Part shown: positions 435 through 40,675 of the stretch, one piece after another
Numbering within the stretch: position 1 is the stretch's first letter
How the letters are laid out: every line of letters begins with the position of its first letter
Origin: Escherichia phage vB_EcoS_IME542
Length of the DNA stretch: 46,553 nt
Strand: one strand, 5' to 3'
Sequence record: MK372342
The notes under the pieces: model-generated
Told to the model about the DNA's origin: nothing
Seen by the model: the letters and a program-made list of their open reading frames with translations, nothing else
The model's database searches: none
Program-made: the position numbers and the translations under genes

Positions 435-458
435 TGTGTAAAGTCTCCATTTGTAAAA

Positions 459-473
459 TAGCACTAATTGCTA
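459..473. promoter_or_regulatory. stand-alone copy of palindromic box TAGCA-CTAAT-TGCTA, just downstream of a minus-strand extended -10 (TGcTACAAT, 488..480) for the tail fiber gene
   Basis: Perfect inverted repeat read directly; same box occurs at 15 other intergenic sites. Confidence 0.5.
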
Positions 474-498
474 ATTTGGATTGTAGCATCTTTAAGGC

Positions 499-524
499 AT
501 AAAAAAACCTCCCGAAGGAGGTTA
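499..524 (-). terminator. rho-independent terminator after primase gene
   Basis: Minus strand reads AACCTCC-TTCG-GGAGGTT followed by TTTTTTT; overlaps stop codon. Confidence 0.7.
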
Positions 525-1445
525 ACTATTCAATAAATCACTCGCTTTATATATCTTCTTCCTGATACCGCTCTTGAATGAGTATTCATCATTTGGTATT
601 ACCACGTCAACGTTCCTGTCATCCGCAACGCAAAGCAATTCCCTATCAAGCTTGCATGCCACTCTCAGCTTGTAGTTTCTAAGCGCATAAGCAACCATCT
701 CCATGTTGTAGCTAGAGTGGCAAACAAGCACACAGCGTTTGCCAGTAGCAAGATGAACGCGAACACCATCAATCCAATTATCGACCAGATAAGCGTACTC
801 ATCATCTTTAAAGGTGCCAATAACAGCAATAGACTGGCGAGTATAATCTTTTGCAGCATAACTAACACCCCCTTCTTCATTGATAAACATTACATTGCAC
901 ATTTCTTCTGATATGCCGTCACTATAAGCCATAAAGCACGGCACTGCGTGTATTAGTTCGCCTGATTTTGTCCTGCCAGCATCAAAACCAAACTCGCTAT
1001 AAATACCCTCGTATATGCTGAGTGGAGTAGATTCTACTCTCTCAGTCCTTTCCATTATCTCCAGGCATCTTTCGTGATCAATCTGTGCGCCCATTTTGTA
1101 GAGCTGGGTTCTTGATGCTTGCTTGTTTGCTTTAACTATAACCTCAATTGGTGTTAAGTTCAGCCAGTCACCAAGCAAATTTACTGAATCGGCGAAGGAC
1201 GATCCAGTGCACTTCATGACCCATCCTATACCGGAGTCACTTCCGCATTTCGAACAAACTGCCGCGCCATTTCCTTTTTCACTGCCTATTTCGTCGGTAA
1301 ATCTGAATCTGTCAGTGCCAAAGCAGTATGGGCATGGTCCGTGCTTCTTACTTAGGTGTCTATCATTCCAACCAAGTTCCTTTGCATAAAATGATTTCCA
1401 CAATCCGGCCATCTTAGGTATAACTTCATTCTTATCGTAATTCAT
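522..1445 (-). CDS. DNA primase (zinc-ribbon, phage/plasmid primase type)
   Basis: N-terminal CPYCFGTDRFRF...CSKCG zinc-ribbon motif typical of P4/T7-type primase Zn-binding domains; 307 aa. Confidence 0.6.
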   Translation of the reverse strand: MNYDKNEVIPKMAGLWKSFYAKELGWNDRHLSKKHGPCPYCFGTDRFRFTDEIGSEKGNGAAVCSKCGSDSGIGWVMKCTGSSFADSVNLLGDWLNLTPIEVIVKANKQASRTQLYKMGAQIDHERCLEIMERTERVESTPLSIYEGIYSEFGFDAGRTKSGELIHAVPCFMAYSDGISEEMCNVMFINEEGGVSYAAKDYTRQSIAVIGTFKDDEYAYLVDNWIDGVRVHLATGKRCVLVCHSSYNMEMVAYALRNYKLRVACKLDRELLCVADDRNVDVVIPNDEYSFKSGIRKKIYKASDLLNS

Positions 1446-1921
1446 TTGCTTAACCCGTGATTTTCGTGAAAGTTGTATTTTCTCTCTGCTTCAATTCTTA
1501 CTTTATACGCCTGCTCTGGAGTATCGAAGTTCCCAAGGTGTAGATGCTTGCCGTCAACCTTGATGTGAGCCTTAAATTTTCCGTGATTTAGCTTTGCCAC
1601 TCCACAATAACCATTTGTTGATAAAACGCTAAGCTTGCAATTTCTTGAGTTACCTTGATTTGTTGTTACTCTTAGGTTTTCTATTCTGTTATCTAATTTG
1701 TTATGGTTTATATGATCAATGTAGTCGCCATTTTGAAGCTCTCCATTAAACATCTCCCACACAACTCTATGTACATAAGTCCTAAAGCCATTAACAGACA
1801 CTTTGTAATAGCCAGATGTAGATAGTGAGTTGCACTCATCGCCAACCTTAACACGTCTTGCAGTGCTAATCTTCCAATGCAATTTGCCATCTACATAGTA
1901 AAAATAATCATGCCAGTTCAT
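1442..1921 (-). CDS. HNH homing endonuclease (HNH + AP2-like C-terminus), paralog 1 of 5
   Basis: MNWHDYFYY...DHINHNKLDNRIENLRV HNH motif; shares N- and C-terminal motifs with ORFs at 20312, 32960, 42296, 43536. Confidence 0.85.
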   Translation of the reverse strand: MNWHDYFYYVDGKLHWKISTARRVKVGDECNSLSTSGYYKVSVNGFRTYVHRVVWEMFNGELQNGDYIDHINHNKLDNRIENLRVTTNQGNSRNCKLSVLSTNGYCGVAKLNHGKFKAHIKVDGKHLHLGNFDTPEQAYKVRIEAERKYNFHENHGLSK

Positions 1922-1972: not shown

Positions 1973-2446
1973 TTACTCTTTAGCTTTTCGTGCTGCTTCG
2001 TTGGCGGCTTTAATTTTTCGCCACGAACGACACTCTGGCTTAGTGGCCAGTTCAGCCTCTGTAACCACGCGCAGCATGTGACGCTTTTTGCAGCGCAGAG
2101 TTAGCGGCTTGCCATTGCCGTCGAATTGCAGGTCTGGTCGGCAGAATGTGGCTCGAAAGCCTTCTCCATTTCGCTTGTAGTAGTTGTGTGAAAGCTGAGC
2201 TCCACGTGCCGATATCATTCCGCGCTTAAACCATTCTTCTACAGCCTGCGGTGTCACCTTTAGCTGCTTTGCGATATTCGCCTTTGTGCCGAAGAAATCA
2301 AGAACAATCTCCAGTCGCGCGCGTAGCCCGGCTCTTACTTCATCTTTTAAAACGTAGTAACCCGATGGTCGTTTTCGTTGTTTTTTGTCTTCAGTGCGGA
2401 CAGTTCCGTTATTGCCGTTAATGGTTCGCTTATCAACTGCATTCAT
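1973..2446 (-). CDS. HTH DNA-binding protein (candidate transcription regulator)
   Basis: 157 aa, basic; helix-turn-helix-like segment ANIAKQLKVTPQAVEEWFKRG; GAGGTGA RBS. Confidence 0.45.
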   Translation of the reverse strand: MNAVDKRTINGNNGTVRTEDKKQRKRPSGYYVLKDEVRAGLRARLEIVLDFFGTKANIAKQLKVTPQAVEEWFKRGMISARGAQLSHNYYKRNGEGFRATFCRPDLQFDGNGKPLTLRCKKRHMLRVVTEAELATKPECRSWRKIKAANEAARKAKE

Positions 2447-2459
2447 TTAATCACCTCAA

Positions 2460-2501
2460 TAGCATTTTTTGTTAAACAATAGGTTCGATAATTGCTATTA
2501 T
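2460..2501 (+). promoter_or_regulatory. promoter for helicase operon: degenerate TAGCA box plus extended -10 TGcTATTAT (2493..2501); overlaps a divergent minus-strand -10
   Basis: TAGCAttttttGTTAA then TGCTATTAT read directly; divergent intergenic region 2447..2542. Confidence 0.5.
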
Positions 2502-2542
2502 ACAGCAATGCAACGAACTAACAAACAGCTAGGATATTTAAA

Positions 2543-4537
2543 ATGCTTCCAGTAGAGCGCTTAGTAGCCAACTTTGATCAAGAGAAGATTAAGCAGATTC
2601 AGAAGGATTATCAGTTTGGAGAAATCACGCCATACCCATTCCAGTGCGTGACATTCGACCAAATAGGTAAGCACATCGCTAAGTACGAAGCGCCATTCAT
2701 AGCAGACCTGTCGGTATCGGCAGGTAAGACAATCATTCTTGCCATGATTGGTAAACGCATGGAGCAGCTTGGCCTTCCTTACATGGTGCTTTCTCGCCAG
2801 TCAGAAATCATCAGCCAGAATGCTGAAGAACTCCGTAACTTCGGTATCCGTAATAGCGTATATTGCGCTGGCCTTAACGTTAAATCTGTTTACTACCCAA
2901 CTATAGTGGCAAGTGAAGGAACGGCGGCAAACGGCTTGTTCAAGGGGCTTGGTGACTATGTTCCGGCAGTTATCGCTATTGATGAGTGTCACATGCTAAA
3001 TCATATGGATATTGTCGAAGCCGAAGAGAACGAGGAAACGTTTGAGCAGATGAGCACCGCAAAAGGTGAGATGGTTTTCAAGGATGGTGAATACACGGGG
3101 TTAACTGGTACAGGTCGTTCGCAATACACTTTAATCATTACAGAGATGAAACGCCGTTGCCGTGAGAAATACAAGCGAGAACTACGTATCTTTGGTCTCA
3201 CTGGTAGCCCATACCGTGATAACAATCATATCGTGGTAAGTAATCCTAACATTCGAGGATTTTGGCGTAAGACGGTTATGCAGGTTCCAACCAATTACCT
3301 GGTGGATTTGGGTTTTGTTGTCCCAACTGTTTACGGTGAGGTTGGTGATTTGGGTTATGATCTTGCTGAATTTGCGCCAGATGGTGATGATGGAATCAAA
3401 GACTTCAGTAAGAAAGAAATGGATGCGATGCAGGAAAAAATTCATCAAAACCAGTCCATGACGCAAAAGATTATGCAGTTCGCAGCCAAGTTTATGGAAA
3501 CTCGTAACGCAGCGCTAGTAACTTGTTCAGGCAAGCGGCATTGCGAGGAGGCAGCCGCGGCGCTTCCTGATGGCGTAACCTGGGCTATAGTAACTGACTC
3601 TACTGGTGAGAAAAAACGTCGTGAGATTCTTTCTGACGCAGCTGAAGGTAAGTATAAATTCATCTTTCAGATTGGTTGTCTCACAACCGGCGTGAACGTC
3701 CCGCCATGGGATACGTCAATAATTCTTCGGAAGGTTGGAAGCATCACGTTATTGATTCAACTTTTGGGGCGAGGTATGCGGATTCTTAAGAAGAAGCATA
3801 AGGAAATGGGAATGGTTAAGGATGATCACGTGGTGCTGGACTTCGCTGGTACTCTTGATGATATGGCAGAATTGTACTTTGACCCAATTATAGAGGAGGT
3901 GCAAGACCAGAAATTCAAGTCTTCTAGTAAAGGTGGTGACGAGCCAAGGGTATGTCCAGCTTGTAGCTATGAGAACTCGCCATTTGCTCGTCGTTGTAAT
4001 AATGTTATCGAAGGTAAAAGGTGTGAGCACTTTTTTCAGTTTCGTACCTGTGATGATATTGAAGACACGCAGACAAAAGTTACTATTAAGAAAGGTTGTG
4101 GTGAGAAGAATGATATTGCTGCTAAAAACTGCCGTTGCTGCGGAGAAATGCTTATTGACCCTAACGCAAAGCTGTCTGGAAAGATGTATCGACAAGGGGA
4201 TTGGTTGAGAGTTTACGGATTCAGTATTGGGTTAACTAAAAACCAAAACGGGATCGTTGCTCGCTATGAAATCATGGCTCACAGCGGTGACAGGTTTGTT
4301 GCTTACGAAACTTTCTTTCCAGAGAGTGATCATCGCGTTTGCTCTGTGAAGTGGAAGGCGTTTTGCCAAACTCACATCGCTAACAAAACAGAAGCATTTC
4401 GCATCGGGAGACTGCGTAATGCAAGAATGATTATGACTAACGCAAGTCAATTTCGTGAGCCTTTGCGGGTGACTCATAGAAAAAATCAGAAAGGTCAGGA
4501 TATCATTGCAAACAAATCTTTTACTATGGAGGATTGA
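2543..4537 (+). CDS. SF2 (DExH-type) helicase with C-terminal zinc-ribbon region
   Basis: Walker A VSAGKT, motif II IDECH, C-terminal CPACSY...CRCCG cysteine pairs; 664 aa. Confidence 0.7.
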   Translation: MLPVERLVANFDQEKIKQIQKDYQFGEITPYPFQCVTFDQIGKHIAKYEAPFIADLSVSAGKTIILAMIGKRMEQLGLPYMVLSRQSEIISQNAEELRNFGIRNSVYCAGLNVKSVYYPTIVASEGTAANGLFKGLGDYVPAVIAIDECHMLNHMDIVEAEENEETFEQMSTAKGEMVFKDGEYTGLTGTGRSQYTLIITEMKRRCREKYKRELRIFGLTGSPYRDNNHIVVSNPNIRGFWRKTVMQVPTNYLVDLGFVVPTVYGEVGDLGYDLAEFAPDGDDGIKDFSKKEMDAMQEKIHQNQSMTQKIMQFAAKFMETRNAALVTCSGKRHCEEAAAALPDGVTWAIVTDSTGEKKRREILSDAAEGKYKFIFQIGCLTTGVNVPPWDTSIILRKVGSITLLIQLLGRGMRILKKKHKEMGMVKDDHVVLDFAGTLDDMAELYFDPIIEEVQDQKFKSSSKGGDEPRVCPACSYENSPFARRCNNVIEGKRCEHFFQFRTCDDIEDTQTKVTIKKGCGEKNDIAAKNCRCCGEMLIDPNAKLSGKMYRQGDWLRVYGFSIGLTKNQNGIVARYEIMAHSGDRFVAYETFFPESDHRVCSVKWKAFCQTHIANKTEAFRIGRLRNARMIMTNASQFREPLRVTHRKNQKGQDIIANKSFTMED

Positions 4538-4773
4538 TTATGAGTGCATTAGCTTTAGCTATAAAGGAAATGATTGAAGAAGACATAAAGAAAAGAAACT
4601 ATGAGACTATAATGTCCGTCTCTGATAATGTTTTTGAACATATACTATATCATGGGGTAACGAGCGAGGATTCCTGTTGTGCAGGTATGGTGTACAATGG
4701 CATTTACCTTAGTGAGCATGAAATAATCTCAGCTTACTTTTCTAGAAATCAAGATGCGGAACCATTATTTTGA
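4534..4773 (+). CDS. hypothetical protein
   Basis: 79 aa ORF, ATGA start/stop overlap with helicase gene. Confidence 0.4.
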   Translation: MIMSALALAIKEMIEEDIKKRNYETIMSVSDNVFEHILYHGVTSEDSCCAGMVYNGIYLSEHEIISAYFSRNQDAEPLF

Positions 4774-5189
4774 AAATCACAGATAAAGAAGATTACATTG
4801 AGTTTTACCCTGGTGCTGTAAAGTCATGCCCAAAGGAGGACGACGAACAGATCTTTTGCTCTGATTGGGTTAAGTATCATTACCCTCAGATTGTTTACTG
4901 GCACACAGTTAATGAAGGGATGAAATCAATTGGGTCAGCAAGGAAGGATGCAGCTAAAGGGCTCCTTAAGGGCGTATCAGACTGCTTATTCCTGATACCT
5001 GAATCACTTCGCGGAAAGTACCCTTTCGGAGCCATAGAGCTAAAGAGGGCTGGCAAAACCCAGGCTAGCACAGTCAGCGACGAACAAAAGTCTTTCCTTA
5101 AAAGCGTAAGAGAATCAGGTGGTTTCTCCGCTGTAGCCTATGGGCGCGAAGGTTTTCTTGCAGCATTCAAAGAAATGATTTCAAAATAG
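4770..5189 (+). CDS. VRR-NUC / PD-(D/E)XK-like nuclease
   Basis: D-x(n)-E-L-K arrangement (DCLFL...GAIELKRAGK); 139 aa; stop TAG lies inside the TAGCA box. Confidence 0.5.
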   Translation: MKITDKEDYIEFYPGAVKSCPKEDDEQIFCSDWVKYHYPQIVYWHTVNEGMKSIGSARKDAAKGLLKGVSDCLFLIPESLRGKYPFGAIELKRAGKTQASTVSDEQKSFLKSVRESGGFSAVAYGREGFLAAFKEMISK

Positions 5190-5247
5190 CACGAATTGCT
5201 AAAGACGAATTGGTGAGTTGGTGTATTATCAACTCATCGAAACGAAA
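5187..5247 (+). promoter_or_regulatory. boxed promoter element: TAGCAcgaatTGCTA, TGTATTAT -10, CATCGAAACGAAA leader
   Basis: Read directly; shares architecture with 14 other copies. Confidence 0.55.
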
Positions 5248-6383: not shown

Positions 6384-7514
6384 ATGGCAACTGCAAAAAT
6401 AACCAACGAACAGCTTCGTGAAGAACTAGCGAGCGGCATGACTAACAAAGCAATAGCAGAGAAGTACGGTATGAATATTCGCAATGTTGAATTGCGTCGT
6501 AGTAAGCTAGCTAAGGCTGGAGATGGGCACGGTAGAGATGTAAGCAACCTTATTCCTCAAGGTTATGCAGTTAAGGGTGTATCAAGTCTTATTGGTGCTG
6601 ATGGTGAGATTAAGCAGCAGTGGGTTAAGTCTGACATCGACAAAGAGAAGCAAGAAGAGATGATGTTTCAGGCTATTGAAGCGCTTACTGATGAATTGCC
6701 GCGCGAGAAGCCTAGAGCATTAAGAGTTGGTTTGTGGGAAGACACTTTAAGTCTTTATCCTGTTTTTGATATGCACATTGGAGCAATGGCGCACCATGCA
6801 GAATGCGGGGAGAATTACAGTACTGAAATCGCAGAGCGTGTCCTTAATGATTATTTTGATTACGCTGTTGCTAAGGCTCCTTGTTCTAAGAAAGCAGTAT
6901 TGCTGATTGGTGGCGACTTCCTCCACTCAGATGGATTGGAAGCTGTTACGCCTACTAGTCATCATGTGCTGGACCAGGATAGCCGATACCATAAGCTTGT
7001 TTACGTAGCGGTTCGAGCGACTCGGCGAGCAATTAGCCGGATGCTTGATAAGCATAAAGAAGTTGAAGTTCAGATTATTCCAGGTAACCACGACCTTTCG
7101 GGTATGATTTGGTTGCGTGCAGCAATGGCGGCATTCTATATGGATGAGCCAAGGGTAAATGTTGATGCTTCACCTGCTGCGTTGCACGTAACTCAGTTTG
7201 GCAAGACGCTTCTTGGATACTGTCATGGTCATGAGCTTCGCAAGCCAGATACTCGCTTATCAACTTTGGCACGTGACCACCGCAAGGCGTTTGGTGAATC
7301 AGAATATGTTTATACCCATTCGGGCCATTATCACCATCAAACGATTACAGAAGGTAACTTGGGTATTGATGAGTCTCATGGTCAGCTTGGTGCGAAAGAT
7401 GCTTACAGCGCAAACGGTGGTTATCGCTCTTATCGCCAGGCGTCTGTAATAATCTACAGCCCTAAATTCGGCGAGATTGGTCGATTCACTTGTCGCCCAG
7501 AAATGTTTAGCTAA
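6384..7514 (+). CDS. calcineurin-like metallophosphoesterase with N-terminal HTH-like domain
   Basis: Motifs DMHIG, GGDFLHSDG, IPGNHDL, GHYHH; N-terminal MTNKAIAEKYGMNIRNVELRRSKL. Confidence 0.6.
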   Translation: MATAKITNEQLREELASGMTNKAIAEKYGMNIRNVELRRSKLAKAGDGHGRDVSNLIPQGYAVKGVSSLIGADGEIKQQWVKSDIDKEKQEEMMFQAIEALTDELPREKPRALRVGLWEDTLSLYPVFDMHIGAMAHHAECGENYSTEIAERVLNDYFDYAVAKAPCSKKAVLLIGGDFLHSDGLEAVTPTSHHVLDQDSRYHKLVYVAVRATRRAISRMLDKHKEVEVQIIPGNHDLSGMIWLRAAMAAFYMDEPRVNVDASPAALHVTQFGKTLLGYCHGHELRKPDTRLSTLARDHRKAFGESEYVYTHSGHYHHQTITEGNLGIDESHGQLGAKDAYSANGGYRSYRQASVIIYSPKFGEIGRFTCRPEMFS

Positions 7515-7572
7515 TAGCACTTTTTGCATAACCAATGCCGTAGAAATGCGGCATAATCACCGCATCGAAACT
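7515..7572 (+). promoter_or_regulatory. boxed promoter element (TAGCActtttTGCAT, hairpin TGCCG/CGGCA, CATAAT, CATCGAAAC)
   Basis: Read directly. Confidence 0.5.
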
Positions 7573-10939: not shown

Positions 10940-11000
10940 TCTCGTTAATATGCGGGCATTATATAACACCCGCTCAGTATGTCTTTATCTTTTAGTGCTA
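10940..11000 (-). promoter_or_regulatory. boxed promoter element (degenerate box, -10 TATAAT within hairpin loop GCGGG/CCCGC)
   Basis: Minus strand reads TAGCACTAAAAGATA ... GAGCGGG-tgttatataat-GCCCGC ... AACGAGATGGAG. Confidence 0.45.
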
Positions 11001-11354
11001 TTATGAGTATTTTGCTTCAAACCTGTAGTCGCCACAGATAGTAACAAATCCAACATCCTCATCCCTATATAGCTGCCAGGCGGTTCCTTCTTTGTCATAG
11101 ATATATCCAGCGCGCTGACCAAGTCCAGCATGGATATCAACTTGATATCGCTTTCCTTCAGTGAAGTATTTGCGAATAGATGAGTGATGGTTAACCTTTG
11201 TACAATATAGAGTCTTGGTCTTGATGTATTTTCCGCGCTCTGTAAGATTCTGCCATTTTCCATTAACCTTAATCTGCTCTACACCATCTTTAACGCGGGC
11301 CTTGAACAAATTGTTATCGCTTGATACCCAGTTTTTTGTAATCGTAGTAGTCAT
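11001..11354 (-). CDS. hypothetical protein
   Basis: 117 aa ORF. Confidence 0.45.
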   Translation of the reverse strand: MTTTITKNWVSSDNNLFKARVKDGVEQIKVNGKWQNLTERGKYIKTKTLYCTKVNHHSSIRKYFTEGKRYQVDIHAGLGQRAGYIYDKEGTAWQLYRDEDVGFVTICGDYRFEAKYS

Positions 11355-11699: not shown

Positions 11700-11770
11700 C
11701 CTTTCGTTGTTTCGTTTCGATGGAAAGATAATACCGCATCCTTGCGATTTCGTTTTAGCAATTCGTGCTA
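11700..11770 (-). promoter_or_regulatory. boxed promoter element (perfect TAGCAcgaatTGCTA, hairpin CGCA-agga-TGCG, TATTAT, CATCGAAACGAAA)
   Basis: Read directly on minus strand. Confidence 0.55.
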
Positions 11771-11916
11771 TTTCTTGCCTTTTCTATCGCCTTGAGCATA
11801 ATCTCGTGGCTTTCCAGCAAGTCCTCACGAAACCAGTCACCACAAGGCCAGCCCTTTCCGCTATAGGCGCTGATGACCTCAAGATCGAAATAATTTATCT
11901 CAGATGGTAGTAGCAT
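11755..11916 (-). CDS. hypothetical small protein (53 aa) whose C-terminus NSTNC-stop is encoded by the palindromic box
   Basis: Hand-translated MLLPSEINYFDLEVISAYSGKGWPCGDWFREDLLESHEIMLKAIEKARNSTNC; GGAGG RBS. Confidence 0.35.
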   Translation of the reverse strand: MLLPSEINYFDLEVISAYSGKGWPCGDWFREDLLESHEIMLKAIEKARNSTNC

Positions 11917-11919
11917 TAT

Positions 11920-12108
11920 TTAGGCCTCCATAATGTATTCAAACTCTGATGTAAACAATGGAAGTTCCCTTCCTGACGTAGTTTTAATACTAACCTCACC
12001 GGACTCATACTGGCGCATAACTTCGTAAACACCTCCAATCTCGACTTCGTAGAAATCTTTCTCATACTTGCCGTGTTTCGTTGCAAAGCTGATTAATTTA
12101 ATTTTCAT
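11920..12108 (-). CDS. hypothetical protein
   Basis: 62 aa ORF. Confidence 0.45.
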   Translation of the reverse strand: MKIKLISFATKHGKYEKDFYEVEIGGVYEVMRQYESGEVSIKTTSGRELPLFTSEFEYIMEA

Positions 12109-12347
12109 TATTTCACCTCATCAAACGTTGCGATTCCAGGAATAAACATACCAAGATTCCAGCCAGCGATAGCAATCCATCCAGAATCGTGCTTGTGAGG
12201 TCTCTCAGCGCCATTAATAACCCATTCGTTCGGGATTGTCTTACCTTTAATAATTAGCGGCTCGGCGTCGTATACAGAGCCTTTAACGAATGGAGTTAAT
12301 ACTTTCTTGTCGGCGCTGGTAATGCAATTGGTGCAGCGAATTTTCAT
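12108..12347 (-). CDS. hypothetical protein
   Basis: 79 aa ORF, start/stop overlap with 11920..12108. Confidence 0.45.
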   Translation of the reverse strand: MKIRCTNCITSADKKVLTPFVKGSVYDAEPLIIKGKTIPNEWVINGAERPHKHDSGWIAIAGWNLGMFIPGIATFDEVK

Positions 12348-12591
12348 ATTTCAATCCTCAAATAAATGGTAAACACTCGACGCATCCAAGTCCATCGCAG
12401 CACAGGAATTCATCATCTGACTGGAATTGCTTAGCTAAATTAATATCCAACTTTCCGCGCACCACAAGGTCGGTGTAATCCTCGTTAAGCCCAATCAGTG
12501 CGCATTCGTGGCGTAACTTATCTTTATAAATATTTATATCTGTACCCTCATTTGGTTTGTACCGGATGTCGTCCGGCGGCGATATAATTTA

Positions 12592-12831
12592 TTAGTGCTG
12601 CTTTGCTGTGTAAAACTTCCAGTCATCCTGGACTTCAATCAATGTACCTTTGGCGATCATTGAGTTGAGGCTATCTTCAGTAAGGAGAGTTCTCAACCAG
12701 GTGTATTTGTTGCCTACTCGAACATTGCCACAGTTATTAAACACGCTACCGTTTACCAACATCATCTCAACGCCTTTTGAGCCAGGCTTAGTGAAGAGAC
12801 GTTTTTCTGTTTTAGTGGTCTGAATGCTCAT
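12592..12831 (-). CDS. hypothetical protein (ATG 12831; track ORF extended to 13020 through the promoter element)
   Basis: MSIQTTKTEKRLF... starts 10 nt after GGAGA RBS downstream of boxed promoter. Confidence 0.5.
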   Translation of the reverse strand: MSIQTTKTEKRLFTKPGSKGVEMMLVNGSVFNNCGNVRVGNKYTWLRTLLTEDSLNSMIAKGTLIEVQDDWKFYTAKQH

Positions 12832-12843
12832 TTTTTTATCTCC

Positions 12844-12914
12844 GGTGTGTTCGTTTCGTTTCGATGAAGTAACTATACGCCATCCTTGGCATTGAGGTTT
12901 AGCAATTCGTGCTA
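12844..12914 (-). promoter_or_regulatory. boxed promoter element (perfect box, hairpin GCCA-agga-TGGC, TATAGT, CATCGAAACGAAACGAA)
   Basis: Read directly on minus strand. Confidence 0.55.
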
Positions 12915-13204
12915 TTGCGTTCGATGTATGCATTAATTTCTTCAGAAGTTTCCATTGCGGAGCGGAAAGCGCCTTTTGCGTGGCGAGCATCACGGAATGA
13001 CTGGAAGAATTTACGAGCAACGTTTGCGAACATCGCGCCAGTTATACGAGCATCACCGAAATTAGTTTCGATTGAGTTACTGATGCCATCACGGAACTCA
13101 TTCTCAGTCATGAACATTTCAGCAATTTCAGCGGTGGCGAAAAGGTCTGCCAGTGATTGCATATTTTCGTGGTCAGCTTTAGTGAAAAGGTTCATGTTAA
13201 TCAT
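12899..13204 (-). CDS. hypothetical protein; C-terminus NSTNC-stop encoded by the palindromic box
   Basis: 101 aa; GGAGA RBS; first gene of minus-strand early block. Confidence 0.5.
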   Translation of the reverse strand: MINMNLFTKADHENMQSLADLFATAEIAEMFMTENEFRDGISNSIETNFGDARITGAMFANVARKFFQSFRDARHAKGAFRSAMETSEEINAYIERNSTNC

Positions 13205-13221
13205 TTTCGTGTCTCCGTGAG

Positions 13222-13285
13222 TTCTTCGTTTCGATGGAGTAATAATAGCAAATCACTCCTGATTGGTCATTAGCAAAAAGTGCTA
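13222..13285 (-). promoter_or_regulatory. boxed promoter element (perfect box TAGCActttttGCTA, hairpin AATCA/TGATT, extended -10 TGcTATTAT, CATCGAAACGAAG)
   Basis: Read directly on minus strand. Confidence 0.55.
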
Positions 13286-13305
13286 TTCGTTGGATTTATT
13301 GATTC

Positions 13306-13400
13306 TTGCAGATATTGCAATGATTCACCTCATTATTGCACATATAGCAATATTGTATCTGATGCAATGATGTTTTTGATTGTTGCGAATTTAGCAATTA
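13306..13400. repeat. cluster of short WWGCAAT motifs (ATTGCAAT, ATAGCAAT, GATGCAAT, TTAGCAAT, TTGCAC, TTGCGAAT) in divergent control region
   Basis: At least six copies within ~100 bp read directly; ATTGCAAT is itself palindromic. Confidence 0.45.
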
Positions 13401-13549
13401 TTTGTGTGGGAGTGAATGAATAGAGGAAGGACTACCATACAAGTTGATTTTGATTCTGGCTGAGCCATTTTGGATGTACACGTTACCGAAGTTATGTTGT
13501 GTAGATGCACCCACCCTCCGTAGGAATGCTGTACGCCTATAACGCGCAA

Positions 13550-13635
13550 TTACGCAATGGTTACATAATAATATCTATATATATCAACCTTTTACTTTAT
13601 TATTATTATTATTATTATATATATGTATATCTTGT
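13550..13635 (+). repeat. copy A of ~85 bp direct repeat with (TTA)7 microsatellite in divergent non-coding region
   Basis: TTACGCAATGGTTACATAATAATATCTATATATATCAACCTTTTACT(TTA)n... nearly identical to 40753..40835. Confidence 0.7.
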
Positions 13636-13800
13636 ATATCTGTCATATGGGGAGGGTCGATAGTTTTTTATGAAAATGACTATATTTATCTATATTAATA
13701 TATATAGGTATACCCCCGACATTTCCGCGGAAATTCATACACACGACATTTACACCGCTTCTGGCGCGGCTCTCAGAGTGGTTTGGCGTATCTGGCTGAA

Positions 13801-13846
13801 AATAACATGAGATAACACTTGATAACATGTAGATGTGTGATACTAT
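13801..13846 (+). promoter_or_regulatory. candidate early promoter: three phased 10-bp repeats (AATAACATGA GATAACACTT GATAACATGT), -35 TTGATA, 16 nt spacer, extended -10 TGaTACTAT
   Basis: Read directly; about 40 nt upstream of RBS AGGAG and start 13889. Confidence 0.5.
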
Positions 13847-13888
13847 GGATGCATCTTAACGAAGAGCAACCAATCAGGAGTAATAAGA

Positions 13889-14407
13889 ATGTCAGAACGT
13901 AAAGAAGCAGTAAGTCTTGGTGAAGTAGCTCGCTACATGGCGACTCAGGCTTTAAATAGCGACACGAAATCATTTGCAGTACCAGTGCGTATGATTGTTC
14001 GCCAGGTGTACGGGCTTAGCAAGGAGGAAATTAGCAAGGTTTATGATGAAGACCTTAAGCCGGATGGTAAGTACAATCTCAATAAGCTGAAGTCCTCATA
14101 CGTTTCAAACACAGTAAGTCGCATGCCTGAAATTAAGGCTGCAAACGTCAGGTCCATGTTCTCGATAAAGGATATGGAGTTTAATGGTGAGGAGGTTCGT
14201 TCTGCGGTAATCTCGCTTGTTCCTGGTGCAATCAATCATGGCTCACGAAGCAAAGCAGGGGAAGAGAGGGAGGCGGCTATCATTGAGAAGTTCAAGAAGC
14301 GACTTCTTGCAGTTACTCCGAGCGTAATCCACCTGAAAGGCGAGGAGCTTAATGGCGCAATGTTCGCACTAACCGCTTACCAGGAACTTATCAAGGAGAC
14401 CAAATAA
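13889..14407 (+). CDS. hypothetical early protein (first gene of plus-strand early operon)
   Basis: 172 aa; AGGAG RBS 8 nt upstream. Confidence 0.55.
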   Translation: MSERKEAVSLGEVARYMATQALNSDTKSFAVPVRMIVRQVYGLSKEEISKVYDEDLKPDGKYNLNKLKSSYVSNTVSRMPEIKAANVRSMFSIKDMEFNGEEVRSAVISLVPGAINHGSRSKAGEEREAAIIEKFKKRLLAVTPSVIHLKGEELNGAMFALTAYQELIKETK

Positions 14408-14941
14408 TGGGAATGTTTGATTTCAATGATGTGAAGCTAAGTGGCGAGGAAATCGTAAGAATTGCGCAGCGTGATGGTTACTCAATTCTTCGCGTGGCAA
14501 TCAGTAATAACTGATATCGGCAAACTCAGCGCTTCTGGGGTCGCCCTGATGCATCGTCAATCTACAAAGGTAGCGAGCATGCGGTTCTTGTTAATCTAAT
14601 TAGGAAAATGGGAAGAAACGGGAAAAGGGGTGCTTGGTGTTAGGTCATTATACGAAGGCCTCAGGAAATCAAAACCAGTTGATTCACGTAATGTCAGACT
14701 AATGGCGAGGCTTCAGGAGGGACTTATCCCAGACCTAGAGAAGATGAATCTCGTCTGCATGATTGGTGATAAGATTTATGTTCACCCTGCAATCCTTGAT
14801 GAGTGTTGGGAACCTAACTTCAAAGTATACGAAGGTGAGCATCCTAGTAGACTACCATACCACTTGCGTTACAGTGAGGAGGAGGTTGAGATGGCTATGA
14901 AGTTCTATCGGAAAGCTAAATTACTCCTGACTGGGAAATAG
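14407..14941 (+). pseudogene. disrupted, internally deleted paralogue of the P-loop ATPase gene (9344..10927): N-terminal and C-terminal homology only, in-frame TGA and a frameshift
   Basis: MGMFDFNDVKLSGEEIVRIAQRDGYSILRVAISNN-stop-YRQTQRFWGRP matches ATPase N-terminus MFDFNEDKLSVEQVMAIAATDNLPPLRVAINANGYRQSQSFWKAP; GVRSLYEGLRKSKP...LVCMIGDKIYVHP matches ATPase C-terminus GVRSLYEAARKVKP...YTCLIGDKIYINP. Confidence 0.5.
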
Positions 14942-15000
14942 CACTTTTTGCCTAACGTAATAATGCCAAGGATGGCATAATCATCTCATCGAAACGAGAG
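14939..15000 (+). promoter_or_regulatory. boxed promoter element (box TAGCActtttTGCCT, hairpin GCCA-agga-TGGC, extended -10 TGgCATAAT, CATCGAAACGAGAG)
   Basis: Read directly. Confidence 0.55.
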
Positions 15001-15018
15001 ATGCAAAGGAAAAATAAA

Positions 15019-15237
15019 ATGAACAAGACAATCACACTGCAATGCATTAAGACAAATAACCCAGAATTTATTAAAGTTCACAAATATTTAGCAACCCTGG
15101 TAGACGGTAAAACATGGGCAGTTAAAGGTGGCTTCCAGGATTACAAATTCCCACTTGAGCACATACCTGGCGGAAACCTTGGTTTTGTTAGTAGCTGCCG
15201 CTCAGTTAAGTTCGTTTTTGAAGTGGTAATGAAATAG
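15019..15237 (+). CDS. hypothetical protein (second ATG with AAAGGA RBS preferred)
   Basis: 72 aa; stop TAG inside next box. Confidence 0.45.
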   Translation: MNKTITLQCIKTNNPEFIKVHKYLATLVDGKTWAVKGGFQDYKFPLEHIPGGNLGFVSSCRSVKFVFEVVMK

Positions 15238-15262
15238 CACTTTTCATCCTGACTGGTATAAT
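15235..15262 (+). promoter_or_regulatory. boxed promoter element, short form (TAGCA half-box, extended -10 TGgTATAAT)
   Basis: Read directly. Confidence 0.45.
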
Positions 15263-15334
15263 CCCCGCATAAACCACACGAAAGGAATTTGATTGACCAT
15301 ATACGAACACAAATTCAGCAGCAGGGGTATTGAT

Positions 15335-15418
15335 ATGCTCCTGCACTATTTAGACGAAAAATACGCAAAGCTCATGCTTAAGACGCATGGCGGCACAATA
15401 ACGAGGGTTGAGATATGA
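15335..15418 (+). CDS. hypothetical small protein (27 aa)
   Basis: MLLHYLDEKYAKLMLKTHGGTITRVEI; AGGGG RBS; ATGA overlap with next gene. Confidence 0.3.
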   Translation: MLLHYLDEKYAKLMLKTHGGTITRVEI

Positions 15419-15675
15419 GTAACTACGATCGAGAAATTATTGGGATTGATGGAACTGTGACAAAAGTAGATGTTTATCGTGTTCTTGATGCGTTCGGTGT
15501 ATCGGACCCGGCCACGCAGCATGCGATAAAGAAGATGCTTTGCACTGGCTTGCGTGGCCACAAGGATTACCTGACTGACCTTAATGACTCAATTGAATCA
15601 TTGCAGAAGGCTAAAGAGCTTTACGGTCAGAGAGTGATTAACGAGTCGGCCAAACCAAAACTTAATGTTAAATAG
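15415..15675 (+). CDS. hypothetical protein
   Basis: 86 aa ORF. Confidence 0.5.
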   Translation: MSNYDREIIGIDGTVTKVDVYRVLDAFGVSDPATQHAIKKMLCTGLRGHKDYLTDLNDSIESLQKAKELYGQRVINESAKPKLNVK

Positions 15676-15734
15676 CACTTTTTGTTAAAACTCCAGGGAA
15701 GGAGTTTGGCATAATAGCTTCATCGAAACGAGAG
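15673..15734 (+). promoter_or_regulatory. boxed promoter element (box, hairpin AAACTCC-agggaa-GGAGTTT, extended -10 TGgCATAAT, CATCGAAACGAGAG)
   Basis: Read directly. Confidence 0.55.
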
Positions 15735-15957: not shown

Positions 15958-16181
15958 TTACGATTAACCTGTCAGAGACAGATGCAGCAATTCTTAAGTC
16001 GATAATTAACTCACCAAAAGATACAAGGAGTTTTGCTGTAATGCGTGTGGCTAAAGAGGTTTGCACTCAGATTAACAATCAGCAATTCGATGTAAGCGAC
16101 TTCGAGTCATCTCGCCAGTACGAGTCACTAAGCGTCAACGCTGCATACTTGGCTAACTGGGATAAGGAAACAAAGAAATGA
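15954..16181 (+). CDS. hypothetical protein
   Basis: 75 aa ORF, ATGA overlap. Confidence 0.45.
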   Translation: MITINLSETDAAILKSIINSPKDTRSFAVMRVAKEVCTQINNQQFDVSDFESSRQYESLSVNAAYLANWDKETKK

Positions 16182-16315
16182 TTTACGTTCATACGTACTA
16201 CACGGGAAAATTTAACAGCGTTAAGCACGTTAGAGTGCACGATAGCTACGAGAGCGCAAAGGCGCAATGGCTGGTTCTTGGCGGTGACATTAATTCATAT
16301 AAAATCGCTGAATAG
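16178..16315 (+). CDS. hypothetical small protein (45 aa)
   Basis: MIYVHTYYTGKFNSVKHVRVHDSYESAKAQWLVLGGDINSYKIAE; stop TAG inside box. Confidence 0.35.
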   Translation: MIYVHTYYTGKFNSVKHVRVHDSYESAKAQWLVLGGDINSYKIAE

Positions 16316-16374
16316 CACTAATTGATAAAACAGGGTTGGGGTAATTTGGTATAGTTACCCTATCAAACGAGATG
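16313..16374 (+). promoter_or_regulatory. boxed promoter element (box TAGCActaatTGATA, hairpin GGGTAA/TTACCC, extended -10 TGgTATAGT)
   Basis: Read directly. Confidence 0.5.
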
Positions 16375-16614: not shown

Positions 16615-16770
16615 ATGGATAACTACGAATTACCAAGCCAGTGGGCAAAGAGAAAGATGGATGAGGCTAGGAATGGAGATATTGCTATGATGTACTTTGA
16701 GCCAATGAATCTATGGAAGGAGCGCGAGGATAAGATGGGACTTACAGCAGAGAAAAAAGAGCAAGAATAG
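16615..16770 (+). CDS. hypothetical small protein (51 aa)
   Basis: MDNYELPSQWAKRKMDEARNGDIAMMYFEPMNLWKEREDKMGLTAEKKEQE; weak RBS. Confidence 0.3.
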   Translation: MDNYELPSQWAKRKMDEARNGDIAMMYFEPMNLWKEREDKMGLTAEKKEQE

Positions 16771-16831
16771 CTAAACGCATTCGCCATGGACGGCATATAA
16801 TTACCTTATCAACACAATGAGAGATTGAGAG

Positions 16832-17665: not shown

Positions 17666-17740
17666 GCTCTGTTAGCTTAATGGAGAAAGCCGCAGCCTTC
17701 TAAGCTGTTGATGGTGGTTCAACTCCACCACGGAGCGCCA
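17666..17740 (+). tRNA. tRNA-Arg (anticodon UCU), CCA encoded
   Basis: Hand-folded cloverleaf: acceptor GCTCTGT/ACGGAGC, D-arm GCTT-AATGGAGA-AAGC, anticodon stem GCAGC/GCTGT with loop CTTCTAA, T-arm GGTGG-TTCAACT-CCACC, discriminator G, CCA. Confidence 0.7.
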
Positions 17741-18676: not shown

Positions 18677-20251
18677 ATGACTGATGTTTTAGTTTGGGAG
18701 GAACTATCCCAATCAGAGAAACAGGCGATTAAGCTACTATCCACCCACAACTTCGAAACATTCCTTCGTGTGTGGTTCAGCATCACGCAAGGGCAGAAGT
18801 ATATAATGAACTGGCATCATAGATACCTATGCAGGATTGTTGATGAGATTATTAGCGGAGAGCGAAAGGATACAATCATAAATGTATCACCTGGCGCCGG
18901 AAAAACCGAAATCACGTCCATTCACTTTCCTGTTTATAGTTACCTCAAGCTACCAAAAGTTCGTAACCTTAGCCTGTCATTCTCTGATAGCCTGGTCAAG
19001 CGAAACTCTAAGCGAGTTAGGGACCTTATTAAATCAATGGAGTTCCAGGAGTTATTCCCAAGCAGGTTCGGTACGTGTAAGGATGACGAGATTCAGGTGC
19101 TTGATGAATCAGGAAAGGTTAGATTTGAGTCAATATCAAAGGCTATTGGAGGGCAAATAACCGGATCGAGAGGTGGTTACATTACGGATACTTATAGCGG
19201 CTGCCTGATGCTGGATGACGTTGATAAAGTTGATGACATGCTTAGCAAGGTGAGGCGTGAAGCAGTACATATGCTTCTAAAGAACACAATTCGCTCTCGT
19301 CGGGCAAGTTCGGTAAAAGGAAAAGCAACACCAATTATATCAATACAGCAGCGATTGCATGTGAACGATAGCTCGTGGTTCATGGCTGAATCTGGGGGTA
19401 TGGGTATAGATTTCGATGTTGTGAAGATTCCAGCGATAGTTACTGAGGATTACATCGACACGCTCCCTGACTGGCTAAAGCCACACTTCGAGGCTGATGT
19501 TCTATCTAGCGAGTACATCGAGCGAGATGGGGTTAAATACTACAGCTACTACCCACAGAAGGAATCCATTCATGATTTAATGGCAATGCAGGACGCGGAC
19601 CCATATACGTTCGCAAGCCAATATATGCAAAGCCCAATAGCTCTCGGTGGCAACATGATTGATACGGATTGGTTTATTCGTTACGGTGGGGATTTGCGAG
19701 CGCCATTAAAGTATGACTACCGATTCATCACTGCGGATACCGCGCTCACGACTAAGTCGTACAGTGACTTTAGCGTGTTCCAGTTGTGGGGCGTTAAGGA
19801 TAGAAAGCTATACCTTCTTGATATGGTTAGGGGTAAGTATGAGGCACCGGAACTCGAGGCAACACTATTGGACTTTGAGGCCAAAGCAAGAGCCACTAGT
19901 CGAGAGGAGGGGATACTTCGCAAGGTAATAATCGAGAAGAAAGCGTCAGGTATCGGCTTAATTCAATCTGCAAGTAGGGTTATGCGCACACCGATTGAGC
20001 CATTTATACCAGATACAGACAAGGTAACTCGCGTACTTTCTGCCATGCCTCAGATTAAGGCTGGCAATGTCATGATACCAGAGTCAGCGCCGTGGATGAG
20101 TGCACTCATCTCTGAGTTTTCAGCATTTACAGCAGACCTATCTCACCGCCATGATGACATTGTAGACACAACAACCATGGCAATAAACTGTGAGCTAAAT
20201 TTAGCCGACGATGCAAAACTAAGAATGCTGCGCCTTGCTGGGATTAAGTAG
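18677..20251 (+). CDS. terminase large subunit
   Basis: 524 aa; Walker A-like VSPGAGKTE, Walker B-like CLMLDDVDK; position before portal. Confidence 0.8.
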   Translation: MTDVLVWEELSQSEKQAIKLLSTHNFETFLRVWFSITQGQKYIMNWHHRYLCRIVDEIISGERKDTIINVSPGAGKTEITSIHFPVYSYLKLPKVRNLSLSFSDSLVKRNSKRVRDLIKSMEFQELFPSRFGTCKDDEIQVLDESGKVRFESISKAIGGQITGSRGGYITDTYSGCLMLDDVDKVDDMLSKVRREAVHMLLKNTIRSRRASSVKGKATPIISIQQRLHVNDSSWFMAESGGMGIDFDVVKIPAIVTEDYIDTLPDWLKPHFEADVLSSEYIERDGVKYYSYYPQKESIHDLMAMQDADPYTFASQYMQSPIALGGNMIDTDWFIRYGGDLRAPLKYDYRFITADTALTTKSYSDFSVFQLWGVKDRKLYLLDMVRGKYEAPELEATLLDFEAKARATSREEGILRKVIIEKKASGIGLIQSASRVMRTPIEPFIPDTDKVTRVLSAMPQIKAGNVMIPESAPWMSALISEFSAFTADLSHRHDDIVDTTTMAINCELNLADDAKLRMLRLAGIK

Positions 20252-20294
20252 CACTTTTTGTTAAAAGAATAACTCAAGGATGAGTTATCATAAT
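20249..20294 (+). promoter_or_regulatory. boxed promoter element in front of HNH gene (box TAGCActttttGTTA, hairpin ATAACTCA-agga-TGAGTTAT, CATAAT)
   Basis: Read directly; terminase stop TAG is the first three bases of the box. Confidence 0.5.
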
Positions 20295-20311: not shown

Positions 20312-20836
20312 ATGATTAAGCGAACTGAAATTTACGATATAGCAATAGATTATCTTACATACGACGGTGTTAATGTTTTATGGAAGAAGAAGATAAAAAA
20401 GAGTAAGTACTACCCTGGAGATGTTGCTGGAACAATTGACTTTCAGGGGTATATTAGGGTTGCTCTATTCAGAAAACCAGTAATGGCGCACAGGTTCGCT
20501 TGGGAGTTTATTAATGGACCAATACCTGACGGTATGCAAGTTGACCATATAAACCACAACAGGTCCGATAATAGAATTGAGAACTTAAGGTTAGTCACCC
20601 ATCATGAGAACTCAGTAAACATAAAGATGCCGAAGAACAACACATCTGGTCACATTGGCGTTCACTACAATAAAAACAGGGGGACCTGGCAAGCTTCGAT
20701 AGGTGGGCGCAACAAAGAAACTCATGAGCATCTTGGGTGTTTTCACAACAGGGAGGACGCAATAAAGGCAAGAAAGATAGCTGAGATTAGGCTTGGTTAT
20801 CACAAAAACCATGGCAAGACAGATGATGAAATCTGA
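20312..20836 (+). CDS. HNH homing endonuclease, paralog 2 of 5 (between terminase and portal)
   Basis: VDHINHNRSDNRIENLRLVT HNH motif, C-terminal GYHKNHGK. Confidence 0.85.
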   Translation: MIKRTEIYDIAIDYLTYDGVNVLWKKKIKKSKYYPGDVAGTIDFQGYIRVALFRKPVMAHRFAWEFINGPIPDGMQVDHINHNRSDNRIENLRLVTHHENSVNIKMPKNNTSGHIGVHYNKNRGTWQASIGGRNKETHEHLGCFHNREDAIKARKIAEIRLGYHKNHGKTDDEI

Positions 20837-28181: not shown

Positions 28182-28838
28182 ATGGCCCATCTTAGTAACG
28201 GCACTCAGGTCTTCGTAGAAGGCACCAGGGGAGCTACTATCGACGTAACCGCGATTTCCAACGCCGTTACTCCTGTTTTAACTTTATCCAGCGTTGAAGA
28301 TATTGCTCGCGGTGATTACCTTCTGTTTACCAGCTCAGCTTCAACCCTGCTGGCTGACAAGCAAGTTCGCGTTACCGCAGTATCTGGTTCAACTGTAACC
28401 GTTGAAGGTATTGATACCTCCAACACCACCAAGTTCCCGGCCGGTTTAACTGGCGAAGTGGTTAAGATTCTTAGCTGGTTTGAGGTTCCTTGTGTTCAGG
28501 ACGTATCCACTGACGGTGGTGAACAGCAGTTCGTTAACTTCCAGTGTTTGTCCGATGACCGTGAACAGCAGATTCCAACCTATAAGTCTGCTGTAACTAA
28601 CACCTACACGTTCGCGCACGAATACACCAACCCTGTATATCCGGTTCTGCGTAACTACGATGAGTCTGGCCAGGTTGTTGCGATTCGTCTGTTCGTACCT
28701 CGAGCTAGCGAAATGCGCTTGCAGTCCGGCACTATCGCTTTCAACGACACCCCTACCATTGGTGTTAACGAAATCGAAACGGTATCCATCGCAGTATCAA
28801 TTCGTGGTCGCCTGTCCTCTGTGGCAGCTGAAGTTTAA
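28182..28838 (+). CDS. major tail protein (putative)
   Basis: 218 aa; AAGGAAAA RBS; followed by strong terminator; precedes chaperone and tape measure genes. Confidence 0.6.
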   Translation: MAHLSNGTQVFVEGTRGATIDVTAISNAVTPVLTLSSVEDIARGDYLLFTSSASTLLADKQVRVTAVSGSTVTVEGIDTSNTTKFPAGLTGEVVKILSWFEVPCVQDVSTDGGEQQFVNFQCLSDDREQQIPTYKSAVTNTYTFAHEYTNPVYPVLRNYDESGQVVAIRLFVPRASEMRLQSGTIAFNDTPTIGVNEIETVSIAVSIRGRLSSVAAEV

Positions 28839-28868: not shown

Positions 28869-28872
28869 TGCA

Positions 28873-28933
28873 TAGCACTTTTTGCTAAAGCACTTATTCA
28901 GCTTTACTGTATAGTTATCTCATCGAAACGAAA
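28873..28933 (+). promoter_or_regulatory. boxed promoter element (perfect box TAGCActttttGCTA, hairpin AAAGC/GCTTT, TATAGT, CATCGAAACGAAA)
   Basis: Read directly. Confidence 0.55.
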
Positions 28934-32888: not shown

Positions 32889-32931
32889 TAGCACAAAATG
32901 GTAAAGCCAAAAGGATTTGGCTTGCTATAAT
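32889..32931 (+). promoter_or_regulatory. boxed promoter element in front of HNH gene (box TAGCAcaaaaTGGTA, hairpin AGCCAAA-agga-TTTGGCT, extended -10 TGcTATAAT)
   Basis: Read directly. Confidence 0.55.
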
Positions 32932-32959
32932 CAACTCATTAAAATCATAAGGAGATAAA

Positions 32960-40609: not shown

Positions 40610-40675
40610 TGTGTTTCGTTTCGATGGAGTAACTATAGCAAAGGATGATTACGGAGTCTTTAGCTATTCGTGCTA
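40610..40675 (-). promoter_or_regulatory. boxed promoter element (box TAGCAcgaatAGCTA, extended -10 TGcTATAGT, CATCGAAACGAAACAC)
   Basis: Read directly on minus strand. Confidence 0.55.

Follow-up and report, generated by a model that had tools for sequence, protein, structure and literature searches.

Why do so many genes of Escherichia phage vB_EcoS_IME542 (sequence record MK372342) stop inside, or directly against, one and the same short palindromic box? The DNA analysed here, referred to throughout as the window, is the whole 46.5-kb stretch (46,553 nucleotides), which represents a complete, circularly permuted T1-like siphophage genome, and the box in question has the anatomy A-TAGCAC-NNN-TTG-N-TAAA. 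An earlier note on this DNA had taken the coupling of gene ends to the box as a sign that it marks junctions where gene cassettes are exchanged. Our analysis points to the box as a DNA-level promoter element, repeated about 18 times, and not as a gene-ending signal; the distribution of stop positions suggests that the upstream open reading frames (ORFs) were trimmed or extended until they ended on or against it. We hold with high confidence that the stop overlap is a by-product of compaction against a promoter element. The fuller account, in which these by-product stops are combined with a promoter element served by a host activator of the MarA/SoxS/Rob type, is what we regard, with modest confidence, as the best explanation of the whole.

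By its sequence, orientation, copy number and T1-like genome, the box belongs to the 21-nt direct repeat of the T1 family, aaATAGCACnnnTTGnTAAAA; the window holds 18 boxes, comprising 16 copies with at most two mismatches to this repeat and two degenerate ones. The pattern TAGCACNNNNNG occurs 17 times compared with 5.1 +/- 2.1 times in shuffled sequence, and 0 of 100 shuffles reached 17. The same repeat was confirmed in T1, Rtp, 12210I, RobRod40, G8 and KP36 and in more than 118 IMG/VR stretches. It has been reported before, and the portion of the 2024 TLS paper that deals with it (PMC11447400) describes aaATAGCACnnnTTGnTAAAA as a 21-nt repeat with 18 intergenic copies about 76 nt ahead of start codons, places it also in T1, Rtp and Rogue1, lists its function among the open questions and suggests that it may be stoperator-like, an enhancer-binding site or an UP element. 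The repeat is not mentioned in Niu et al. 2014 on T1-like phages, and a literature search for Drexlerviridae promoter palindromes gave no result. Members of Veterinaerplatzvirus (Drexlerviridae, Braunvirinae) share 82-83% nucleotide identity with the window over 50-70% of length, and the window is syntenic with Rtp and, more distantly, with T1. Junctions were counted in five relatives, T1, Rtp, 12210I, RobRod40 and G8, using the coding-sequence (CDS) annotation of the depositors, and promoter architecture was read from a six-genome alignment of 117 boxes, in which 89 copies were aligned.

Gene ends at the box

At 13 of the 14 boxes of the window that have a co-directional upstream gene, the stop codon lies between -3 and +13 relative to the T of TAGCAC, which bears out the earlier observation that a stop is tied to nearly every copy. 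The offset is 0 at six junctions, where the TAG of the box is itself the stop codon, and all six ORFs named in the earlier note had correct coordinates: 4770..5189 (TAG 5187..5189, box 5186..5205, whose 20-bp marbox-equivalent is ATAGCACGAATTGCTAAAGA), 14630..14941 (TAG 14939..14941, box 14938..14957), 15001..15237 (TAG 15235..15237, box 15234..15253, with the degenerate 3' half TAGCACTTTTCATCC), 15415..15675 (TAG 15673..15675, box 15672..15691), 16178..16315 (TAG 16313..16315, box 16312..16331) and the large terminase gene 18677..20251 (box 20248..20267), all on the plus strand. At three junctions the offset is -3, a TAA abutting the box, and here too the ORFs were confirmed: the DNA-repair-exonuclease homologue 6384..7514 (plus-strand box 7514..7533), 11001..11354 on the minus strand (box 10982..11001, T of TAGCAC at 11000) and the tape-measure gene 29907..32888. 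Three further genes stop at +13, and one, 16615..16770, stops at +9 inside the degenerate box GAGCAAGAATAGCTAAAC (16758..16777, plus strand, T at 16759). The exception is the plus-strand box 28872..28891 (T at 28873): the stop of the major tail gene 28182..28838 is found 37 nt ahead of it (offset -37), with a terminator-like hairpin between the two. The pattern is carried by two divergent clusters of small early genes, which are separated by a non-coding AT-rich region (13290..13880).

The same arrangement prevails in the five relatives, where 60 of the 78 boxes with an upstream CDS on the same strand have its stop within -5 to +13. Offset 0 accounts for 30 of these 78 junctions, -3 for 5 and +13 for 7, and an arrangement common in the relatives that the earlier note had missed, TAA-A-TAGCAC, in which the stop precedes the box by 4 nt (-4), accounts for 15. 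Collapsing orthologues leaves 59 junctions, 48 of them within the same range, with a frame usage of 30:9:11 (chi-square p = 3e-4). Among the 23 junctions terminated by the box TAG, 14 have AAA and another 5 have GAA as the last sense codon (19/23 together), because the conserved A-rich 5' flank of the box dictates the final residue. TAG stops are mostly box TAGs, numbering 6 of 7 in the window and 5 of 6 in T1. For annotation, this means that ORFs running into the box are real, that their last residues are set by the promoter and that a TAG stop is in most cases a box TAG. The overlap of the repeat with gene ends appears not to have been described before, although the repeat itself is known in T1-like phages.

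The role of the TAG was examined with sites gathered by a pattern that did not require it. Of 20 boxes lacking a co-directional upstream CDS, 18 retain the TAG, compared with 64 of 69 boxes with a stop in or at the box. One such box in the window is the first leftward copy (13267..13286, minus strand, T at 13285), a putative promoter of 12899..13204 that keeps its TAG; another box without a co-directional upstream gene (40657..40676, minus strand, T at 40675) is the putative promoter of 40361..40591 on the same strand. A TAG that is kept where there is nothing to terminate belongs to the DNA motif, and selection for TAG as a stop codon was rejected on the 18 of 20. Stops probably fall on the box because the motif carries a TAG in one frame and a TAA in a second, and because the genome is packed without spacers. 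An ORF arriving in frame 0 would use the box TAG, usually after an AAA or GAA codon imposed by the box; one arriving in frame +1 would read N-S-T-x-C and stop at TGCTAA; and one arriving in frame +2 would supply its own TAA at -4.

The frame +1 reading can be followed in individual proteins. Two minus-strand genes, 11755..11916 and 12899..13204, had been described as reading through the box to a shared pentapeptide NSTNC, and they do so, ending in RNSTNC and ERNSTNC at the TAA of TGCTAA within the minus-strand boxes 11752..11771 (T at 11770, TAA 11757..11755) and 12896..12915 (T at 12914, fully matching the marbox consensus considered below). A third NSTNC protein, missed earlier, is the plus-strand HNH endonuclease 42296..42787, which ends in GNSTNC in the box 42772; the gene was inserted upstream of a resident box (42771..42790, the whole unit spanning 42296..42790) and ends within it at offset +13. 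The earlier note had also asked whether the tail is conserved elsewhere, and it is not: in more distant homologues HAKQ, SESK, HNAN or AKK takes its place. A 101-aa protein ends in YIER-NSTNC in the window and in BEK2, in YIER-HAKQ in SLUR29 and in YIAR-SESK in BEK6, the latter two supplying a TAA of their own 4 nt ahead of a box, and in YIER-HNAN in Rogue1, where no box lies downstream. A 53-aa protein ends in KAIEKA-RNSTNC in Braunvirinae and in KAIAKA-AKK followed by the box TAG in Rogue1. Altogether seven unrelated protein clusters end at the box TAA (+13), with final residues that come from reading the box in frame +1 (NSTNC or one of its variants). Since the tail is lost wherever a homologue meets the box in another frame or has no box, the NSTNC tails are by-products of box translation, dictated by the box.

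Promoter layout downstream of the box

The 89 aligned copies share one layout, in which the box is followed by 18 bp that usually contain a hairpin, then by a -10 hexamer and then by the conserved start region CATCGAAACGA. A -10-like hexamer stands at exactly position 38 in 89 of the 117 boxes, and the 18-bp spacing between box and -10 holds for 8 of the 11 sites in the window and for 76% of the 117 boxes. The hexamers are TATAGT, TATAAT, TATTAT and CATAAT, with a TG at -15/-14 in 31 of 89 copies. From the box to the next annotated start codon there are 70-89 nt in 70 junctions of the five relatives, and 62-84 nt for most copies of the window. A -35 hexamer was looked for over three spacer lengths, and with a best match averaging 2.7 of 6 positions none was recognisable. 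Sigma-70 consensus promoters are not enriched in the genome (40 against 42.7 expected), in line with the only three sigma-70 promoters that the TLS authors found, as given in the relevant part of PMC11447400. Reading TTGCTA of the box as the -35 hexamer is rejected, as the spacer to the -10 would be 22 bp.

Three copies in the window illustrate this layout: box 5186..5205 has the -10 TATTAT 18 bp downstream and the leader CATCGAAACGA at 5235, box 14938..14957 has CATAAT at 14976..14981 and the leader at 14987..14997, and box 15672..15691 has CATAAT at 15710..15715 and the leader at 15721..15731. The 11-mer CATCGAAACGA lies at the predicted transcription start, 48-49 nt past the T of TAGCAC, at 5235, 7563, 11722(-), 12866(-), 13236(-), 14987, 15721, 28921 and 40626(-). 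It is also kept in T1, Rtp and KP36, and may serve as an initial transcribed sequence or as a signal in the 5' leader. The hairpin between box and start site folds at a mean of -8.9 kcal/mol compared with -3.6 kcal/mol in shuffles, with a stem sequence that varies from promoter to promoter; examples are found at 11733..11748(-), 14963..14976(+) and 5213..5237(+). Two classes occur, one just before the -10 with the recurring loop A(A/C/T)GGAT and the other with the -10 inside the loop and a 3' arm that reaches the start site. The annotators of T1 labelled some of these box-promoter hairpins as terminators. A literature search for a Drexlerviridae transcriptome or start-site mapping gave no result.

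Two longest-ORF starts fall inside a promoter or leader: one ATG lies in a hairpin at 11739(-), the other at 15001(+), immediately past the leader. For these two genes, the starts that bear a ribosome-binding site (RBS) are 11686(-) and 15019(+), so that automatic annotation tends to over-extend both genes.

Candidate ligands of the box

The 20-bp marbox/soxbox consensus of MarA, SoxS and Rob is AYNGCACNNWNNRYYAAAYN (PMC2064960), and of its 14 specified positions the box fits 13. Sites with at most one mismatch to AYNGCACNNWNNRYYAAAYN number 11 in the window compared with 0.9 in shuffles, and 14-21 in the relatives, again with about one in shuffles; Klebsiella phage KP36 has 13 of them. All promoter-linked copies are in the forward orientation, with GCAC distal and AAA proximal to the -10, as in micF, and the E. 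coli micF marbox ACAGCACTGAATGTCAAAAC stands 18 bp from its -10 TAGAAT, a distance equal to the phage spacing. The box is also identical to the marRAB marbox ATGCCACGTTTTGCTAAATC at 16 of 20 positions. Class II promoters are described in the literature as having a forward site centred near -41, no recognisable -35 and a canonical -10, and the box promoters present the same geometry, being forward, centred near -41 when the start is placed from the -10, devoid of a -35 and equipped with a canonical -10. The conservation of the box is asymmetric in the way of a marbox, with GCAC and AAA strong and position 14 weak.

Because sequence, orientation and distance to the -10 all match class II promoters such as micF, recruitment by a host activator is the most likely mechanism. 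The box would then be an activator site centred near -41 of a promoter without a -35, and host RNA polymerase would be recruited through a host activator of the MarA/SoxS/Rob type, of which Rob is made constitutively. That such an activator acts through the box is a reading we hold tentatively. A broader proposal, held no more firmly, is that the Drexlerviridae may have wired most of their transcription units to MarA/SoxS/Rob (RamA in Klebsiella) through 11-21 near-consensus class II marboxes per genome, which would also supply the stops, and sometimes the last residues, of the preceding genes. A MarA homologue encoded by the phages themselves was sought with tblastn, which has limited sensitivity here and returned only noise (all E > 1), and this candidate was set aside. 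Literature searches found no paper linking MarA/SoxS/Rob or the marbox to T1-like phages, and the putative identity of the repeat with a class II marbox appears not to have been described before. If the proposal were true, phage gene expression would respond to bile salts, oxidative stress and antibiotics. T1-like phages are common fermentation contaminants and phage-therapy candidates, and a coupling to host stress and antibiotic regulators would bear on phage-antibiotic interactions and on the engineering of resistant production strains. The marbox reading also makes the repeat's function, listed as open, experimentally testable.

Several observations weigh against this account. On the side of the stops, TAG retention is lower, at 13 of 19, where the upstream stop lies farther off, so that stop function may make a minor contribution, and the 30:9:11 frame bias is explained qualitatively only, although the frame-0 excess would fit the fact that frame 0 costs no extra residues. 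On the side of the promoter, the predicted transcription start is placed from the -10 hexamer. The match to the marbox is imperfect: the A of TAG and the TT of TTG, which are free in the marbox consensus, are almost invariant in the phage box, and consensus position 19 (Y) is usually A or G. The extra invariant positions indicate that something beyond a generic marbox constrains the box sequence. Most Rob is held inactive in the cell, and MarA and SoxS are scarce in the absence of stress, so that a lytic programme would be driven only weakly by the host. The activation reported for MarA and RamA is about 2- to 4-fold only (PMC8811837). Finally, the gene of a conserved Cro-like helix-turn-helix protein adjoins a box, and its product may be the real ligand or a second one.

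This Cro-like protein (157 aa, 1973..2446 on the minus strand) is the rival candidate for the box-binding factor, and the box would then be its palindromic operator (TAGCA-N5-TGCTA), activating or silencing the repeated promoters in the manner of L5 stoperators. The box does have 5-bp arms with half-sites 10 bp apart, two bases not demanded by the marbox consensus, the A of TAG and a T of TTG, complete the palindrome, and the regulator is kept in T1, Rtp, KP36 and all relatives, its gene adjoining a box located in the gene's leader region. The part of the TLS paper on the repeat (PMC11447400) likewise raises an enhancer-binding or stoperator-like role. The weak Pfam P22_Cro match (E = 4e-6), however, scores 26.9, below the family cut-off of 30.2, and conservation across the box is asymmetric, with a near-invariant G3 (about 1.8 bits) facing a palindromic partner at position 13 of about 0.6 bits. 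A symmetric palindromic dimer operator was rejected for this lack of symmetry between the half-sites. The flanking A(-1) and AAA(15-17) are conserved yet not palindromic, and the promoter-linked copies keep a single orientation and a fixed distance to the -10, neither of which a symmetric dimer site needs. If early promoters depended on a phage-made protein, moreover, the first genes could not be expressed. We regard the Cro-like protein as an unlikely candidate. An UP-element-like contact for the alpha subunit of host RNA polymerase, working without an activator, would suit the location of the box at about -50 to -31 and its A/T-rich flanks and spacer, and the UP option appears among the suggestions quoted above from PMC11447400; the most conserved bases of the box nevertheless contain G/C (GCAC, TTG), unlike A-tract UP elements, and the marbox match is far more specific, with 11-21 sites per genome compared with about one in shuffles, leaving this a very unlikely alternative. 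Coupling at the level of RNA, in which the box of read-through transcripts would form a small hairpin, by itself or together with the stem-loop after it, so that ending translation there would govern how the upstream message is terminated, processed or stabilised, appears highly improbable. A ribosome halted at the box TAG would leave the hairpin free, the hairpin after the box folds more stably than shuffles with stems that differ between promoters, and some hairpins are annotated as terminators in T1 while one in the window is terminator-like. Against this, the stem of the box itself is only 5 bp, and the free variation of position 13 means that pairing is not maintained, for which reason a box RNA hairpin was rejected; stops occur at four different offsets, many of the downstream hairpins span the -10 and have no U-run after them, and the retention of TAG without an upstream ORF speaks against RNA coupling as well.

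Other identities were considered for the box and rejected. A sigma-54 promoter (TGGCAC-N5-TTGC, with GG and GC elements 10 bp apart) does not fit, as the box has AG in place of GG and only 3 nt between CAC and TTG, 2 bp short. The consensus of an IHF site is WATCAANNNNTTR, from which the box departs by one position in spacing and by two core mismatches.

Two boxes of the window have unusual settings. A variant with TAGCAT (2459..2478, plus strand) is found where the helicase and Cro-like regulator genes diverge, within the 5' leader region of the latter. The regulator gene has a good sigma-70 promoter (TTGTTA, 16 bp, TATAAT at 2524..2497(-), within the region 2447..2543), and the TAGCAT box stands between this promoter and the RBS; the TAGCAT form is kept in five relatives and KP36, and autoregulation is possible. 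The other box (458..477, plus strand) is kept in all relatives between the primase and tail-fibre genes. Seen on the gene strand, it overlaps the region where the tail-fibre transcript starts, and it does so in reverse orientation, just past a TG-extended -10 (TGcTACAAT) and a strong terminator (region 480..520), a placement that is repressor-like and not activator-like.

Cassette exchange and known systems

The proposal that boxes mark cassette junctions stood in part. If boxes acted as recombination junctions like the promoter-early stem-loop (PeSL) cassettes of T4-type phages, exchange from box to box would shuffle promoter-gene modules and a crossover within the box would put gene ends there, and a number of findings agree with this. 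Breakpoint clusters within -12 to +20 of a box start number 14 of 111, compared with a mean of 1.4 and a maximum of 7 at random positions in 2000 trials, an enrichment of about ten-fold; part of it is built in, because a conserved motif flanked by non-homologous sequence stops a BLAST alignment regardless of where the crossover took place. None of the five relatives has the gene 15019..15237, which boxes 14939 and 15235 flank; in all of them the segment 14939..15243 is replaced, and Braunvirinae homology resumes 8 nt into box 15235. In T1 and G8 an HNH cassette with a box at either end occupies the site at which only one box is present in the window, Rtp and 12210I. The HNH genes 20312..20836 and 32960..33430 have their own box promoters, set exactly at the upstream stop codon: box 20248..20267 at the end of the terminase gene heads the first of these cassettes, which is absent from 12210I, and the second unit (box, promoter and gene, 32888..33430, plus strand) follows directly on the TAA of the tape-measure gene, replacing a 28-nt box-less spacer of the relatives. 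Promoters and genes have also been reassorted, with the 101-aa gene standing behind three different promoters and with 89% identity between the G8 and window promoters continuing until 20 nt inside genes that differ. Among the phage's gene products are RecE-like and Erf-like recombination proteins. The PeSL element consists of a promoter and a stem-loop (PMC2839356), and a hairpin follows the box here.

Gene content between boxes does differ among relatives while the boxes are conserved, as the earlier note had proposed to check, but several single-gene insertions or deletions are box-less (4540..4773, 11920..12108 and 43509..44048), and breakpoints accompany gene boundaries at large, being no more frequent at boundaries with a box (12 of 17) than at boundaries without one (36 of 53; Fisher p = 1.0). 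Stop overlap, moreover, needs no recombination, given that the TAG is kept without an upstream gene and that the tails vary. The gene content of the early arms is a gene-by-gene mosaic among relatives. The window holds five HNH_3 genes (1442..1921(-), 20312..20836, 32960..33430, 42296..42787 and 43509..44048), each missing from at least one close relative and all inserted at gene boundaries, two of them carrying their own box. The HNH gene at 32960 is homologous to Rtp40, which lies at a different locus in Rtp. As the origin of the gene ends at the box, recombination at box junctions is doubtful and seems to us an improbable cause; the cassette-junction reading is partly supported, and the data do not establish a special role of the box in recombination. 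Within the promoter-element account, box-headed promoter-gene units, notably those with HNH genes, would be gained and lost as units, which would add box-bounded cassettes without causing the stop overlap.

The window has further features of note. The region 13290..13880 between the two early clusters, about 600 bp long, contains TTA and TA repeats and several TTGCAAT/ATTGCA motifs, and at 13345/13346 homology jumps from Rtp 46219 to Rtp 1, matching the ends of the Rtp genome; this region is probably a pac or terminal region. A box-less sigma-70-like promoter (13819..13846; TTGATA, 16 bp, TACTAT, preceded by TG) stands at the head of the rightward cluster. In the minus-strand ORF 12358..12600, which is homologous to 12210I gp53, the inserted cassettes have removed the promoter and first codons, and no in-frame ATG, GTG or TTG start is present; the gene upstream of it ends in CAGCACTAATAA, which resembles the 5' half of a decayed box, and the ORF may be a pseudogene or a translationally coupled gene. 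The sole tRNA gene, tRNA-Arg(TCT), is located at 17666..17740, likewise in the relatives.

The stoperators of mycobacteriophage L5 resemble it in being short, asymmetric sites present in many copies, aligned with transcription and located in short intergenic spaces. They differ in that their ligand is a temperate-phage repressor and their effect is a block to elongation, whereas T1-like phages are virulent, with no repressor or integrase among the annotated genes of the T1-like relatives, and the box stands at a fixed, activator-like distance from a -10. The PeSL elements (Arbiol et al. 2010, PMC2839356) share with it a repeated promoter and stem-loop between small non-essential early genes, a location in the most variable parts of the genome and some insertions and replacements bounded by repeats; their promoters, however, are strong sigma-70 consensus promoters while the box promoters have no -35, and the repeat-bearing boundaries here are not preferred over other gene boundaries.

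The 21-nt repeat of the TLS account has the same sequence, is aligned with transcription, is present in about 18 copies per genome and falls into the spacer groups GAA, TTT and AAA/TAA. The portion of that account concerned with the repeats calls them intergenic and is silent on the stop-codon overlap, the fixed -10, the conserved start region and the hairpin. With the class II marbox promoters, represented by micF, the box shares the consensus, the forward orientation, the 18 bp to the -10, the centre near -41 and the lack of a -35, a likeness of sequence accompanied by three extra invariant positions in the phage. What sets the phage box apart is its setting, in that 11-21 copies occur in the genome of a virulent phage, where they head most early and middle units rather than a stress regulon.

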